NCBI GenBank assembly: GCA_029856045.1
Contig: JAHQWG010000031.1
Coordinates: 1-29,262, forward strand
Length of the DNA stretch: 29,262 nt
Direction: 5' to 3'
DNA from: Promethearchaeia archaeon
GTDB taxonomy: Archaea; Asgardarchaeota; Lokiarchaeia; Sigyniarchaeales; SOKP01
Both the position numbers and the translations under genes were made by a program. Below are positions 2,804-8,557 of the stretch, in pieces. Within the stretch, counting starts at the first letter, position 1. Each line of letters begins with the position of its first letter. The notes beneath the pieces were generated by a model. That model was not told where the DNA came from. It saw only the letters and a program-made list of their open reading frames with translations, and ran no database searches.

Positions 2804-2974
2804 ATGCCTATAAATCTAAGCATTATATTGACGGCAATTATGGGGTTTTTTCTATTCGGACTGGCTTACTCTAATTACGGTATAGTTAAATCGGATCCGA
2901 GTAAGAGAATATTTACCTACGCTTTCAATATCGAGAATTTGGCAAATATATTAAAATGTAAAAAAGAGGATTAA
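2804..2974 (+). CDS. putative small membrane protein (56 aa), not in ORF track
   Basis: MPINLSIILTAIMGFFLFGLAYSNYGIVKSDPSKRIFTYAFNIENLANILKCKKED*; one N-terminal hydrophobic segment; ends 16 nt before the radical SAM start. Confidence 0.35.
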   Translation: MPINLSIILTAIMGFFLFGLAYSNYGIVKSDPSKRIFTYAFNIENLANILKCKKED

Positions 2975-2990
2975 AGTCAATAATATTATA

Positions 2991-4661
2991 ATGGAATATC
3001 TTGTTGAAGAGCAAAATATTGCTAAAAAAGATTGGAGAACAATAAAATTATCATTTGCTTTAATATATCCGAATGTTTATCGCATTGGAATGTCTAGTTA
3101 TTCTATACATCTCATTTATTCATTATTAAATTCAAGAGAAGATATTGTATGTGAAAGATTTTTTCTACCTGAAAATATTAGATACCCTGCTTCTCAAGAT
3201 AATAACGTAAATATGGGGAGAATTTTCAGTATAGAAAATCGAATTTTATTAAAAGAGTTTGATATTTTAGGATTTTCAATTCAATTTGAAAATGATTATA
3301 GAAATCTTCTTTGGATTTTGGAAGCAGCAGGAATTCCTCTAAGAACCAAAGAACGTCGTGAAGAATTTAAAGAAAAGGGAACAATTTATCCTTTAATAAT
3401 TGCTGGTGGACCTTGTGCGACTTCAAATGCAATGGTTTTGTCGGAATATATTGATTTATTTTTTATTGGTGATATTGAGCCAAATTTAAATGAGTTTTTA
3501 GACTTAACAATAGAAATAAAAGAAAAATTTGTAAATTTGAATAATGACTTAGAAGTTTTTCGAAAAATCAATGGCATTTTTATCCCTTTGATAAAAAATA
3601 ATTGCAAAAGAACAATCTTAAAAAATTTAGATGAATCAAAAACGCCTTTATTACAAATTAAATCAATTTTTGATCTGCCAATAACCAATCGAAAAGGTGG
3701 CAAGAAACAAAAGGGATTAGCTTTTGGTGATACATATCTACTGGAAATAAATCGTGGATGTCCATTTAATTGTAAATTTTGTATCTCATGCCATCATAAC
3801 ACACCCTTTAGAAACAAGAGTTTTGAAGATATTATTAAAACGATTGACAAAGCCAGAGAACTGCAAAAGATAAAAAAAATTACTTTTATTGGCTCCTGTG
3901 TGACAAGTCACCCGAATTTTATTGAGATCTGTAATTATTTATTGAAAAATAACATAGAATTTATGATACCATCAATTAGGATTGATCATATTACCAAGAG
4001 ATTAATTGGGATTTTAGAGAAAGGAAATATCAAAACAATAACAATAGCTCCTGAAACTGGTTTCAATAATCTTAGATATTCTATAGGAAAAAAAATTTCT
4101 AATGAACAAATAATAGAAGCGGTTAAAATTATAAGAGATTCAATTATTAGGAATATAAAATTTTATTTTTTAATTGGCTTACCAGGCGAACAAGAGGATG
4201 AGGCCGATGCGATTATGGAGTTAATGACAACTATTAATGAATTGGGTTTTGAAAAAGATTCTTTAAAAGTAAATTTAAATCCATTTATCCCAAAATTAAA
4301 TACTCCTTTTCAAATCTACACAGATTTTTTTTTAGAAACTAATTTAAAGAACCTAAAAAATAAATTTGAAAAAATTCAAAATGGAATTAGTAAAATGCCT
4401 TCAGTTAAATTAAAAATAAAAAATATAAAAAAAATAATTAATGAAGCATTGATACAAACTCTATTTTCTGTTGGAGATAATGAAGTTTCAGGGCTATTAT
4501 TCGATTATTATCATTATGGTGCAACCCTAGGGGCGTTAAAGAAGGCAGCAAAAAAAATTAATTTTTCATTTGACACGTATTTTAAGCAAATAAGAGATGG
4601 TTATAAACCACTGCCACCTTCTTGTTCAATTTTATTACAAAAATCATTAAAAGATATTTAA
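2991..4661 (+). CDS. radical SAM protein with N-terminal B12-binding-like domain (TIGR03960-like architecture)
   Basis: CxxxCxxC motif EINRGCPFNCKFC; N-terminal YPNVYRIGMS...CERFF, DILGFSIQFE, IIAGGP; TIAPETG; YFLIGLPGE; PFIPKLNTPFQ. Confidence 0.88.
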   Translation: MEYLVEEQNIAKKDWRTIKLSFALIYPNVYRIGMSSYSIHLIYSLLNSREDIVCERFFLPENIRYPASQDNNVNMGRIFSIENRILLKEFDILGFSIQFENDYRNLLWILEAAGIPLRTKERREEFKEKGTIYPLIIAGGPCATSNAMVLSEYIDLFFIGDIEPNLNEFLDLTIEIKEKFVNLNNDLEVFRKINGIFIPLIKNNCKRTILKNLDESKTPLLQIKSIFDLPITNRKGGKKQKGLAFGDTYLLEINRGCPFNCKFCISCHHNTPFRNKSFEDIIKTIDKARELQKIKKITFIGSCVTSHPNFIEICNYLLKNNIEFMIPSIRIDHITKRLIGILEKGNIKTITIAPETGFNNLRYSIGKKISNEQIIEAVKIIRDSIIRNIKFYFLIGLPGEQEDEADAIMELMTTINELGFEKDSLKVNLNPFIPKLNTPFQIYTDFFLETNLKNLKNKFEKIQNGISKMPSVKLKIKNIKKIINEALIQTLFSVGDNEVSGLLFDYYHYGATLGALKKAAKKINFSFDTYFKQIRDGYKPLPPSCSILLQKSLKDI

Positions 4662-5229: not shown

Positions 5230-6654
5230 TTATTTTTTTTTACTCTTATATTTATAATATATACCCTGATCATAATTTTCTTTTTTTCTAGAATGCAAAT
5301 TCAATAAATCGGTGTGCAATTTGTTAAGAGATTCGCCATGATATGGAAAAAAATATATGAAAATTAAACTAATTGCGTGCATCACAGAAGGTGCTAAGAA
5401 TAGGAGGATTTTAATCCCAATGATAGCTTCTGCAGATTGTGATGGGGCATCCCTAAGGAAACCAAAAATAAGTAAAACGCTTGTTGCAATAATTGGTCCT
5501 ATACTTTCTGCTGGTTTGAATATAAGGGAACTAACCCCTTGGAAGATACTCTCCCGTCGACTTCCATGTTTAATTTCATCTTCATCTATCGCCAATGTTA
5601 AAAGGGTGAAATCAAAAATTACAAATCCTGAAAATAATGAGCTAATAGATATACAAATCCAAATAATTGGAACTGAATCGGTATTAAAAATTATTGCAAA
5701 ACAAATTAAATTAACAATAATAAGAGCACATTTAAGAATAATAATTACCTTTCGTATTCCCCATTTCTTAGCAACTTTCATATAGATAACTTGTGAAATA
5801 TATCCAAGACCCATTGTAATTATCATAAACAACATTGGTACAATCGGACCAGTCCCTAAGATGAATAAAAAGGCAAATAAAAATGATAATCCCATAGATC
5901 TTGCTATAACATTAAAAAAGAGATAGCCACTTCGTGTTAAAAACGCTCTTGACTTAAGAACATCTTTCATCACTTGCAAAAGGTTATAATCCTCCTCAAT
6001 CCTTAATTCAGGTCTTTCTTTAAGAATCCGAACTGCAATAAAGTATAAAATTATTGAGATTATTGCTATAATACCATTCAAGATTTGAAATGCTTGTAAA
6101 CTGTTTTCAAACAATGGCTGTGCAAGGAATACAGGAACTGCAGCAAAAATTTGTGAGAGATTAAAAATAAAATATAATTTATTACGCATTTCAATGCTAT
6201 CAGTCATTTCTGCCATTAACGACATATATAATCCTATTACAATAGAGAGGAGGGTATCGAAAATACATATACTTAATATAAAATGAATGAATATTACTAT
6301 TTGATCGGTATAACTCCAAGGAAACCACATTAAAAAGTAAAGTATTGCCCATATTGGTCCACACCATTTTATATATATCAGTCTCCGACTCCCCCATTTA
6401 TCAATATTAGTACGATCACTTAAATTCCCGGTTATTGGATCATTAATTGCATTTATTGTTGCATAAATCACCTGTCCAATGATAAAAAGAGTTTGATTTA
6501 AACCCAAAAAGTTCCAGAAAAAATTTACATACATCAAAGTAAATATTCCTGCCATCATAAAACTTGGGGATGCTCCAAATCCATAAGTAAATACCTGTTT
6601 TCGAGGCAACTTTTCGATTATTGATAAATTTTCATTTTTTAACGGCTTTTCCAT
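5230..6654 (-). CDS. MFS transporter, GPH (MelB-like glycoside:cation symporter) family
   Basis: About 12 TM segments; NAINDPITGNLSDRT...WGSRR; AIDEDEIKHGSRRESIFQG. Confidence 0.9.
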   Translation of the reverse strand: MEKPLKNENLSIIEKLPRKQVFTYGFGASPSFMMAGIFTLMYVNFFWNFLGLNQTLFIIGQVIYATINAINDPITGNLSDRTNIDKWGSRRLIYIKWCGPIWAILYFLMWFPWSYTDQIVIFIHFILSICIFDTLLSIVIGLYMSLMAEMTDSIEMRNKLYFIFNLSQIFAAVPVFLAQPLFENSLQAFQILNGIIAIISIILYFIAVRILKERPELRIEEDYNLLQVMKDVLKSRAFLTRSGYLFFNVIARSMGLSFLFAFLFILGTGPIVPMLFMIITMGLGYISQVIYMKVAKKWGIRKVIIILKCALIIVNLICFAIIFNTDSVPIIWICISISSLFSGFVIFDFTLLTLAIDEDEIKHGSRRESIFQGVSSLIFKPAESIGPIIATSVLLIFGFLRDAPSQSAEAIIGIKILLFLAPSVMHAISLIFIYFFPYHGESLNKLHTDLLNLHSRKKENYDQGIYYKYKSKKK

Positions 6655-6869: not shown

Positions 6870-8291
6870 TTAAATCAAATCCATAAATCCTTTGTATCCC
6901 ATATGCATGAGATTATTTTGAATAAAGAGTTTCTCTAAATCAATTATACCATCCGATTTGAGTTTTTTAATGTTTTTCTGGAACTTATATATTTCACTCT
7001 TGATAAGCTGAGTTGGATTAATCGGATTATAAACACCTTTAGTTTTTAATATCCATTCTCGTTGCTGTAGCGTATTAAGAACATTATTAATCTCTGTTTC
7101 CTCTACTTTCATTACCTTACTTAACATCGAGATATCTGCATATCCTAAAGACATAAGGGTCGTATAAGTTTTTGCCTCGATCTCGGATACATTTAAAAGT
7201 TGGATAGCGGATATTACTTTCTCATCCATTTTGGTTAATTTCGACTTTTTTCTTAGAGACTCTTTCTCGACTTTCGAGAGATCAATTGTATCAGCAACGG
7301 TTATTTTCCCAGCAGTTACTGCATCATTAAATAGTTTTACACCAATATCAGAGCGTATGATTACACTATTCCAATCATCTGCAGGAGCACCGACACTTCC
7401 TACTGATATATCTGCAAACTCAGCAGTGTAGTCCTTACAGTATTGGCAACTAGGCCAATTATGTACTTTGGTCTCTTTTATTGGAATTTCTTTAACCGAC
7501 CCATCTTTCTTATAGGCTAAGAATTTACCACGTGAAATGTCAATTTTCTTTACATCATTTATTGGTATTCTAAGTTCTTCTTGAACAGTTTTTCTCATTA
7601 AATTATATGAATAGTTTGAGGAACAATAAAGTCCAATGATTAGTTTAAATTTACCAAGTTTATCTGAGAGAGGTGGCCACAATTGGAGTTTTCTTGCCGC
7701 TTGGATTTGGCAGGGCATGCCAACAAAAGCAAGGTTTTCGAGTTCATATTCATATATTGCTTCTTTATATGTTAATAAACTTGACGCAATAGTATAACGG
7801 GAGCCCGCTGCAGTCAAAACTTCTTCTGGTGTTCTTGCAATAAAGGGTTTCGGATGCCAATTTTCATCCCTACCAGTAAGAAGGGCTCCATCAATTAATC
7901 CTGTATTTAGAGCGTGAATAAGTAGTGTAGAAACCACTCCACCATTTTGAGCTACCTTTAAAATTGCTTCATCTGTGCTTTTTGCAGCATTAGCTTTTTG
8001 ATAATATCCCAATAAAGAATTATTACGAGTTTGACCATTGAAAAATTCTTTCTCAGCCTCTTCTTCTGGAAAATAAGTTCTTGCGCAGTATTTAAAGCAC
8101 ATTGAACACTCAGGATCGTATTCTAGAAGTTTTGGTTCTTTATCCTTTATATCAATGCGAGGACAAAGTGAAACGCATGTTCCGCAAAGGACACATAGAT
8201 CTTTATCTAAAACGAAATCATGCAAGTCTCGAAATCCTATACCTTCAATACAAGATTGTAAATAATCAATAATTGGCTCTTTTATTTCCAT
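6870..8291 (-). CDS. coenzyme F420 hydrogenase/dehydrogenase beta-subunit (FrhB/FpoF-like) protein with C-terminal TrmB-type winged HTH
   Basis: N-terminal CVLCGTCVSLCP and D-x2-CSMCFKYC ferredoxin motifs; AQNGGVVSTLL, AAGSRYT, VGMPCQI, IGLYC, CQYCKDYTAEFADISVGSVG. Residues ~355-473 read LLNVSEIEAKTYTTLMSLG...INNVLNTLQQREWI...YNPINP. Confidence 0.88.
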   Translation of the reverse strand: MEIKEPIIDYLQSCIEGIGFRDLHDFVLDKDLCVLCGTCVSLCPRIDIKDKEPKLLEYDPECSMCFKYCARTYFPEEEAEKEFFNGQTRNNSLLGYYQKANAAKSTDEAILKVAQNGGVVSTLLIHALNTGLIDGALLTGRDENWHPKPFIARTPEEVLTAAGSRYTIASSLLTYKEAIYEYELENLAFVGMPCQIQAARKLQLWPPLSDKLGKFKLIIGLYCSSNYSYNLMRKTVQEELRIPINDVKKIDISRGKFLAYKKDGSVKEIPIKETKVHNWPSCQYCKDYTAEFADISVGSVGAPADDWNSVIIRSDIGVKLFNDAVTAGKITVADTIDLSKVEKESLRKKSKLTKMDEKVISAIQLLNVSEIEAKTYTTLMSLGYADISMLSKVMKVEETEINNVLNTLQQREWILKTKGVYNPINPTQLIKSEIYKFQKNIKKLKSDGIIDLEKLFIQNNLMHMGYKGFMDLI

Positions 8292-8557
8292 TTTTCAATC
8301 CTCTGTTATTTTTTGTTAACTTATTTGATTTTGTTTTTTCTATAATCGTACATGTAATATAACCAAAATGAAAATTTAAGTTTTTATAGTTGATAATCCT
8401 ACATACGATCTGTAATATATAATCTATGATCTTGATAATAGAACCTATCAAATTAAAAAATCTTATGAATTTTATAGATAACGTGATTTAAAAGGAACCA
8501 TTTACTGATTTATTAAAAGAACTATATTATTAAATTATAAACCACTTAACGATTGAA

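Follow-up and report, generated by a model that had tools for sequence, protein, structure and literature searches.

A conserved fusion of an FrhB-type redox module with a TrmB-type winged helix in Asgard archaea: a candidate dimeric ferredoxin/F420 oxidoreductase

The closest described relatives of the protein discussed here are two redox subunits: the zeta subunit of carbon monoxide dehydrogenase (CODH) from Ca. Ethanoperedens thermophilum (8RIU chain B; PMC11493965) and, from the same organism, FwdI (8RJA_E) of an F420-reducing formylmethanofuran dehydrogenase. Both combine an N-terminal 2x[4Fe-4S] domain, an FrhB-type domain carrying FAD (flavin adenine dinucleotide) alongside a [4Fe-4S] cluster, and a C-terminal extension. 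In CODH zeta, the ferredoxin domain (residues 1-83) anchors the subunit to the CODH core, the F420-reductase domain takes residues 84-349, and the extension (residues 350-370) promotes a homodimeric interface (PMC11493965). The same layout is found in a 473-amino-acid (aa) protein of a Promethearchaeia archaeon (assembly GCA_029856045.1), encoded on contig JAHQWG010000031.1, whose positions 1 to 29,262 constitute the window of 29,262 nucleotides analysed in this work. However, while the extension of zeta takes ~20 residues, that of the archaeal protein takes ~120 and holds a complete TrmB winged helix followed by a long helix; furthermore, zeta is encoded with CODH and bound to it, whereas the fusion gene is solitary. 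Herein, we argue, at slightly better than even confidence, that the fusion protein works as a soluble ferredoxin/F420 oxidoreductase, which forms homodimers and has co-opted a TrmB module mainly for dimerisation or as a scaffold.

Other described systems resemble the fusion protein in one half or the other. FrhB (4OMF/3ZFS/4CI0, 6QII, 9R51) shares its fold and cofactor motifs, with 38-41% identity over aa 93-355, but has neither a ferredoxin domain of its own (the clusters come from FrhG) nor a C-terminal domain, and it is encoded in the frhADGB operon. FpoF/FqoF, the F420H2-oxidising input subunit of Fpo/Fqo, has the ferredoxin plus FrhB architecture in common with the fusion protein, but not the TrmB tail. 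For soluble FpoF/FqoF, the role of a stand-alone ferredoxin:F420 oxidoreductase has been suggested (PMC10667645), matching the one proposed here. On the side of the tail, TrmB and TrmBL2 (3QPH, 5BPD/5BOX) share the fold of winged helix and dimerisation helix; in these proteins, however, the domain is N-terminal and an effector domain comes after it, whereas in the fusion protein it is C-terminal with nothing after, and the canonical S-R-x-Y and basic wing of TrmB give way to a variable surface. DsrD, a winged helix that sits on a redox enzyme and had for years been taken for a DNA binder, is also instructive: fused to DsrB in Bilophila, it is an allosteric enzyme activator and not a gene regulator (PMC8794893). 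The analogy is one of principle, DsrD being a small Z-alpha-like winged helix with no coiled-coil helix and no sequence relation to the fusion tail. Lastly, the NADH sensor Rex and PutA, a flavoenzyme and repressor in one, would be functional analogues if the fusion protein were a redox sensor; there is no homology to either. Rex is not an enzyme and carries its winged helix-turn-helix (wHTH) at the N-terminus, while PutA uses a ribbon-helix-helix.

Numerous uncharacterised frhB homologues were described in ethanotroph genomes (PMC11493965), and many unexplored FrhB paralogues have been noted by reviews and comparative studies (PMC9012536, PMC11493965, PMC8498797). Our full-text literature searches (FrhB/Asgard, FrhB/TrmB, F420/winged helix/Asgard) returned no description of such an architecture. 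The sequence-only reading of the window had been aware of no characterised fusion of this kind and proposed that it could be an F420-redox-sensing regulator.

The enzyme part of the fusion protein is intact and represents its best-conserved portion. The Pfam models FrhB_FdhB_N (PF04422; 86.4 bits vs a gathering score of 22), FrhB_FdhB_C (PF04432; 145.4 vs 23.3 bits) and TrmB (PF01978; aa 366-424, 35 vs 25.6 bits) all exceed their cut-offs, and a Fer4 motif lies at aa 27-44(70). The first ferredoxin motif reads C33-x2-C36-x2-C39-x3-C43-P, while in the second one, D59-x2-C62-x2-C65-x3-C69, Asp replaces the first Cys. Throughout 38 orthologues, there is no or almost no variation at C33/C36/C39/C43, C62/C65/C69, Q115-N116-G117-G118, P193-C194-Q195, G220..C223 and C282..C285; QNGG, D59 and all 11 Cys are kept, with D59 itself present in at least 90% of them. 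Hence, the complete redox module seen by the sequence-only reading is borne out, and the Cys-to-Asp swap that it had pointed to is a conserved trait. Judging from homology, C194, C223, C282 and C285 would be the Fe-S ligands and QNGG the flavin site; all of these line up with their counterparts in 8RIU_B and FrhB.

The AlphaFold2 model of the fusion protein is confident (predicted local distance difference test score, pLDDT, 86.3; predicted template modelling score, pTM, 0.85). Its best Foldseek match is 8RIU_B (35% identity, 361 columns, E 3.8e-31, TM(target) 0.84), and phmmer aligns the two at 35% identity over aa 21-366 (E 5.8e-62). The next structural matches are FrhB of three methanogens, FwdI and Fsr, with TM(target) reaching 0.85 for the FrhB chain 9r51_B. 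Having the FrhB fold and both Pfam domains, the protein belongs to the FrhB/FdhB/FpoF superfamily. The NCBIfam models refine its position: positions 146-228 of the FrhG model, the C-terminal ferredoxin part of FrhG, match aa 2-82 of the fusion protein, and aa 93-354 pass the FrhB subfamily model PRK09325 (277.9 vs 269 bits). The FrhB equivalog TIGR03289 was missed (261.4 vs 331.5 bits), and the FpoF models were missed clearly (NF040616, 175.8 vs 475 bits; PRK09326, 172.5 vs 444 bits). The label "FpoF/FqoF-like" used by the sequence-only reading thus holds for the architecture only, the nearest kin being FrhB and the CODH zeta of Ethanoperedens.

Is F420 available to such an enzyme? In the host genome (3.34 Mb, reported as 100% complete), genes for CofH (453 bits) and CofE (271 bits) score above their cut-offs, and therefore F420 is plausibly made by the organism. 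For the F420-dependent Mer (TIGR03555), the same genome gave sub-threshold LLM-family hits only. It should also be kept in mind that some members of the FrhB family, such as HCAR and BciB, do not use F420. The fusion protein would bind FAD and react with F420, the two Cof genes being indirect evidence. About ten FrhB-family paralogues are encoded in the host genome, and of these, a TrmB domain is found on the fusion protein only.

As for the tail, the sequence-only reading had recognised a TrmB-type winged helix in it, and here Pfam, the predicted topology and Foldseek agree. Scanned by itself, the segment aa 340-473 raises the PF01978 score to 38.3 bits. In the AlphaFold2 model, the helices aa 357-364, 370-382 and 387-394 precede the recognition helix (398-410); a beta-hairpin wing (414-423) comes next, then a long helix (426-463) and a short terminal one. 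Such a modelled topology is that of the TrmB DNA-binding domain with its dimerisation helix, so that the C-terminus does model as a winged helix-turn-helix. A profile search of the PDB sequences returned TrmBL2 (5bpd, E 2.4e-4) and TrmB (3qph, E 3.4e-4), with the matches spanning the wHTH and the start of the long helix, and TrmBL2 superposes on the tail with a root-mean-square deviation of 2.5 A over 116 columns. The tail therefore combines a winged helix above the gathering score with a dimerisation helix. Among 96%-identical relatives, both tail and enzyme are under purifying selection (dN/dS about 0.1-0.2, with 0-0.18 for the tail), which indicates that the tail is maintained rather than decaying.

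A prediction of the homodimer of aa 345-473 passed the mark with a score of 0.48, against 0.00 for the best of three controls. In calibration, 20 of 30 proteins solved as homo-pairs scored high enough to pass, as did one of 23 solved as single chains, and, the TrmB and TrmBL2 dimers being solved structures, the pass may partly reflect a memory of them. The prediction runs share at least 71% of contacts, with a partner pLDDT of at least 76. The interface comprises aa 358-367, 377-383 and 423-459, leaving the recognition helix and the wing outside. Conservation is higher in its columns than in randomly drawn sets of tail positions (entropy of 1.20 vs 1.58 bits, P=0.0013). In the long-helix segment, P426, E433, L452 and N459-N460 (QNN) are invariant, and P426, E433, L452 and N459 fall within the predicted interface.

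The face of the tail with which a TrmB protein would read DNA is a different matter. The recognition helix of the fusion protein, EETEINNVL, is acidic and lacks the R/Y of TrmB, just as the sequence-only reading had cautioned, and the wing tip is N-G and not basic. The recognition-helix consensus in the 38 orthologues is K-x-E-E-x-x-V-x-N-A-L with variable exposed positions, and only the buried hydrophobic L405 and L408 and the flanking R411 and W413 are fixed in this region. With 2.01 bits of entropy, the helix exceeds random draws of tail positions in variability (P=0.017). As a control, we used a free-standing 265-aa TrmB-like protein of the same Asgard family, fetched from 20 genomes (L038-L057). 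None of the 20 sequences departs from the recognition helix GVPYSRIYNIL, which has the canonical R and Y, or from the basic wing SRPSRY. In the four genomes holding both proteins, the control is 82% identical overall; its wHTH reaches 96% and its recognition helix 100%, the remainder standing at 76%. The order is reversed in the fusion protein, from 64% for the enzyme through 52% for the long helix and 49% for the wHTH down to 37% for the recognition helix; some genomes carry two fusion copies, so these identities may mix orthologues with paralogues, and only the ranking within each protein is robust. Overall, the DNA-reading surface of the fused module is not conserved. The net charge of the wHTH, which spans -4 to +8 among fusion orthologues, was dropped as an argument against DNA binding: the wHTH of the control is also net negative (-4).

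The 265-aa control protein deserves a comment of its own. Its HTH and wing are wholly invariant (ELSEASGVPYSRIYNILTQLEK ... SRPSRYFAKSP) in 20 genomes of one archaeal family, and the protein presumably acts as a core regulator on a fixed operator.

The fusion is genuine, and it is both old and conserved. Out of 5.8 billion proteins searched, >120 full-length relatives (55-90% identity) were recovered from Promethearchaeota, Lokiarchaeota, Thor-, Heimdall- and Hodarchaeota, nearly all of them with PF04422, PF04432 and PF01978, and a scan of species representatives found the full-length fusion in ~50 genomes of Promethearchaeota, Borr-, Hod-, Sif- and Hermodarchaeota. Ca. Argoarchaeum ethanivorans and Ca. 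Ethanoperedens contribute a divergent fused cluster (471 aa), which takes the fusion beyond the Asgard archaea; this ethanotroph copy is a paralogue distinct from CODH zeta. An assembly chimera, which had been a worry of the sequence-only reading, is excluded by such a distribution. The spread is nevertheless patchy: across the phylum, ~24 of 251 sampled genomes gave a strong tail match, a figure that may be an undercount, 16 candidates having been scored per genome. The nearest tail-less relatives (33-38% identity) belong to Hydrothermarchaeota, Hadarchaeota and Bathyarchaeia. When 1.84 billion representatives were searched with a tail-only profile, all 20 hits with E-values <1e-10 were fused proteins or truncated gene calls; beyond this level came ordinary TrmB-like proteins of 245-290 aa with an N-terminal domain (residues 2-118). 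The short strong matches, considered as candidates for a stand-alone or split tail, start inside FrhB sequence and were rejected as truncated gene calls.

In a quick maximum-likelihood tree of the enzyme region, all 31 fused forms clustered in one group (SH-aLRT 83), separate from the other FrhB paralogues of the host genome and with the ethanotroph lineage and two further lineages as the earliest branches. The sole unfused sequence nested in the group, from locus L107, has a polyferredoxin in place of the tail. Such a topology would fit one origin of the fusion and one later replacement of the tail. The L107 protein (2812-4578, plus strand) is a 588-aa paralogue, 59% identical to the enzyme part, with several Fer4 motifs in its C-terminal polyferredoxin (aa ~428-560). 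Since a paralogue this close bears a polyferredoxin there, the tail position is open to modular add-ons.

In most genomes the fusion gene is solitary, and its neighbours change from lineage to lineage. Clustering of all open reading frames (ORFs) within +/-3 kb of the gene at 52 loci revealed no universal neighbour or conserved target gene. The commonest neighbour, at 16 of the 52 loci, is another FrhB paralogue, and at ~10 it is a 620-640-aa protein with the order MvhD, HTH, ferredoxin, FrhB, often divergently oriented. On one Hodarchaeal contig, the fusion gene stands among HdrD, HdrA, MvhD, two more FrhB paralogues and a DUF7347-HdrA-MvhD gene. No 7-9-mers common to nine orthologue promoters occurred in excess over shuffled controls. 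The single inverted repeat upstream of our gene, TTGATA-N8-TATCAA (8432-8451), is restricted to genomes of the same genus and was discarded as an operator, being at chance level (36 of 100 shuffles contained at least one match).

Taken together, these data induce us to favour the dimeric oxidoreductase. The fusion protein would be a self-contained soluble F420-reductase module of the FrhB / FpoF / CODH-zeta kind, passing electrons between a low-potential partner and F420 by way of two N-terminal [4Fe-4S] clusters, the FrhB [4Fe-4S] cluster and FAD. The partner would most likely be ferredoxin, or else an enzyme docked via the N-terminal ferredoxin domain. The TrmB tail, with its winged helix and coiled-coil helix, would serve mainly for homodimerisation or as a scaffold and not for sequence-specific DNA reading; in the alignment it starts where the dimerising extension of 8RIU_B sits. 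What we infer is that the substrates are F420 and ferredoxin, that the protein forms dimers in vivo and that it binds no specific DNA. We prefer dimerisation to redox sensing because no part of the protein is less conserved than the recognition helix and the conserved tail residues fall in the predicted dimer interface. In this respect, the alternative that the sequence-only reading had raised as a caveat, that the domain might serve for dimerisation, fits the data better than its proposed F420-sensing transcription factor. Several points nevertheless weigh against our preference, beginning with the cautions attached above to the dimer score and to the four-genome identities. Dimerisation and DNA binding are compatible, TrmB itself dimerising via the same helix, and both recognition helices are left free in the predicted dimer. 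The whole wHTH fold has been retained for a very long time though one helix would be enough for pairing, which suggests that its surface binds something. Some orthologues (P0053, P0091, P0081) do possess basic, e.g., K/R-rich, recognition helices, and a variable recognition helix could also be expected if a regulator co-evolves with its operators.

It is tempting to suppose that the protein is, after all, a one-component redox sensor, in which the FrhB module reads the F420/F420H2 ratio or the state of ferredoxin and the TrmB dimer binds or releases DNA in the manner of Rex or PutA. A genuine TrmB DNA-binding domain, wHTH and dimerisation helix included, is there and is kept under purifying selection, its recognition helices would be free in the dimer, PutA provides the precedent of a flavoenzyme doubling as a repressor, and the gene usually stands alone with its own promoter, as autoregulated regulators often do; several orthologues are even divergent from Hdr, Mvh or FrhB genes. 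Against all this, however, the recognition helix, the least conserved element, has neither the R nor the Y that never varies in the TrmB-like regulator of the same genomes, N-G stands at the wing tip in place of basic residues, the promoters share no motif over shuffled controls (the sole inverted repeat being at chance and confined to one genus), no target gene is conserved alongside, and it is the enzyme part that is most strongly conserved, as expected of a catalyst rather than of a mere sensor domain. We therefore consider the sensor unlikely. Of the original proposal, the fusion, the enzyme module and the TrmB wHTH stand, while a regulator that reads DNA is weakly supported (37% identity in the recognition helix, no shared operator, no target gene). 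A wider version, which we regard as rather improbable, would see the protein as a redox-responsive DNA-binding enzyme-regulator of the PutA/Rex type, working with F420 or ferredoxin, set by the redox state of its FAD and Fe-S clusters and perhaps having a relaxed or lineage-specific DNA preference; Asgard archaea would then possess a set of redox enzymes with direct wiring to DNA, made up of this protein and of the MvhD-HTH-FrhB and wHTH-HdrA-MvhD ones.

The winged helix might instead recruit the F420 module to other wHTH-bearing redox proteins (MvhD-HTH-ferredoxin-FrhB; DUF7347-HdrA-MvhD), or tether it nonspecifically to the nucleoid like TrmBL2, and we regard such a docking adaptor as doubtful, although it has attractive features. 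wHTH-type domains recur on Hdr-, Mvh- and Frh-type subunits; the MvhD-HTH(DeoR-like)-Fer4-FrhB protein is divergently adjacent in the ~10 of 52 loci mentioned above; the host genome has a DUF7347-HdrA-MvhD gene just upstream of an MvhA-like hydrogenase gene; and the Hodarchaeal locus groups the fusion gene with two more FrhB paralogues and with HdrD, HdrA and MvhD. Among solved structures, the tail has its nearest relative in TrmBL2, a chromatin protein; FrhB-type modules are known to plug into many enzymes (PMC11493965, PMC9012536), and the DsrD precedent fits too (PMC8794893). Yet most genomes, the host genome included, have no such partner adjoining, and the exposed wHTH surface varies among orthologues, which counts against a single protein partner as much as against a single DNA site; moreover, the solved homologue docks by its N-terminal ferredoxin domain and not by its C-terminus (PMC11493965). 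Finally, the protein could be a canonical FrhB or FpoF subunit with its partner genes elsewhere in the genome. The pass with the FrhB subfamily model, the identity to solved FrhB chains and the presence of [NiFe] hydrogenase large-subunit genes in the host genome would suit such an assignment, which we hold to be very improbable all the same: the FrhB equivalog fails and the FpoF models fail badly, the protein has its own FrhG-like ferredoxin domain, unlike FrhB, the hydrogenase genes are unlinked to the fusion gene (one, of the Mvh type, being beside HdrA-MvhD), and the fused family is separate on the tree from the other FrhB paralogues of the genome.

The features of the gene and its flanks are collected in Table 1. 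The Shine-Dalgarno-like (SD-like) element and the T-tract reported by the sequence-only reading were both found, the former 8 nt ahead of the ATG; the latter is likely, by its sequence, an archaeal transcription termination signal. Its remark that no partner subunits lie nearby also holds: no Frh, Fdh or Fpo subunit gene was detected within ~5 kb of the fusion gene. The neighbours over this distance encode an MFS_2/GPH transporter, a DUF6125 protein, a radical SAM enzyme, a Kre9/KNH-like Ig protein and two SAM methyltransferases. The MFS_2/GPH-type sugar transporter gene (5230-6654, minus strand) is on the same strand, 215 nt downstream of the fusion gene. Since it is missing from more distant orthologue loci, the pairing is probably local synteny and not a regulon.

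Table 1. Features of the fusion gene and its flanks, in window coordinates
Feature	Position	Strand	Basis or remark
Whole coding sequence, 473 aa + stop (P0001): ferredoxin domain, FrhB domains, TrmB-type tail	6870..8291	minus	
N-terminal 2x[4Fe-4S] ferredoxin-like domain, aa ~20-85	8037..8234	minus	Pfam, NCBIfam, invariant Cys
FrhB_FdhB_N, aa 102-172, with invariant Q115-N116-G117-G118 (putative flavin-site motif)	7776..7988	minus	Pfam, orthologue alignment
FrhB_FdhB_C, aa 185-335, with invariant C194, C223, C282, C285 (putative [4Fe-4S] ligands)	7287..7739	minus	
TrmB-type winged helix-turn-helix, aa 356-425	7017..7226	minus	Pfam, AlphaFold2 model, PDB profile search, Foldseek
Long C-terminal helix (aa 426-463) and short terminal helix; equivalent of the TrmB dimerisation helix	6873..7016	minus	
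Upstream intergenic region, GC ~20%	8292..8557		contains SD-like GAGG 8300-8303
T10 tract, 15 nt past the stop codon	6846..6855	minus	sequence; presumed terminator

Some of the proteins encountered near fusion genes or elsewhere in the host genome merit separate mention. ORFs with the order MvhD(FlpD), DeoR-like HTH (aa ~200-245), 2x[4Fe-4S] and FrhB_N/C are found at L090 (918-2801, minus strand) and L083 (457-2364, plus strand), and similar ones at L091, L096, L099, L114 and L075. In the host genome, an 843-aa protein (L063:618-3149, equal to C52:7417-9948) joins an N-terminal wHTH-type DUF7347 domain, an HdrA-like FAD/Fe-S part and a C-terminal MvhD (FlpD) domain, and is thus a further winged-helix-bearing redox subunit; its gene is directly upstream of an MvhA-like [NiFe] hydrogenase large-subunit gene (C52:10814-12007), on a contig other than that of the fusion gene. 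Another protein of this genome, of 709 aa (L064:648-2777, contig C35), has a DUF7347 wHTH at its N-terminus plus an ATP-cone and a domain resembling anaerobic ribonucleotide reductase (NRDD), and looks like an NrdR-type regulatory head joined to the enzyme normally regulated by it.

FrhB paralogues are diverse as well. On contig C44 of the host genome, a 497-aa paralogue (L003:946-2439, plus strand) has a C-terminal extension of ~160 aa, beta-rich by eye, and a gene for a Gtr1/RagA-family small GTPase follows it immediately (L003:2518-3429, plus strand); two further FrhB paralogues lie <7 kb away. This 497-aa protein was rejected as a relative of the tail, as its extension has no Pfam match and no visible similarity to it. 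Two other paralogues, of 484 and 493 aa, gave no Pfam match in their N-terminal 150 aa. In Borrarchaeota-like genomes, a second FrhB paralogue trails the fusion gene on the same strand (genes of 321-333 aa at L068-L070). At L067 (4673-6934, plus strand), this second paralogue is joined to a GlcD-type FAD-linked oxidase in one protein of 753 aa, which might be an F420-coupled 2-hydroxyacid dehydrogenase. On ethanotroph (GoM-Arc1) contigs, a gene for a 176-aa Rrf2/HrcA-type winged-helix regulator precedes the 471-aa fused homologue on the same strand (L035:6224-6754 and L036:1055-1585, both plus), and a DsrE-like gene comes after it on the opposite strand.

FrhB-type modules are universal adaptors linking enzymes to the F420 pool, and in Loki-, Hod-, Borr-, Sif- and Hermodarchaeota the fusion family described here ranks among the better conserved FrhB paralogues; ethane-oxidising Methanosarcinales have it as well. 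The family bears on how Asgard archaea, the closest prokaryotic relatives of eukaryotes, balance electrons between F420, ferredoxin and heterodisulfide. If the tail is indeed a co-opted dimerisation module, it would be a clear case of the DNA-binding domain of a transcription factor recruited as enzyme scaffolding, and would advise caution against calling every HTH fusion a regulator. If, on the contrary, the tail still binds DNA, the protein would rank as the first one-component regulator that responds to F420. In these genomes, wHTH-type domains recur on HdrA, MvhD and FrhB proteins, which hints at a wider principle.

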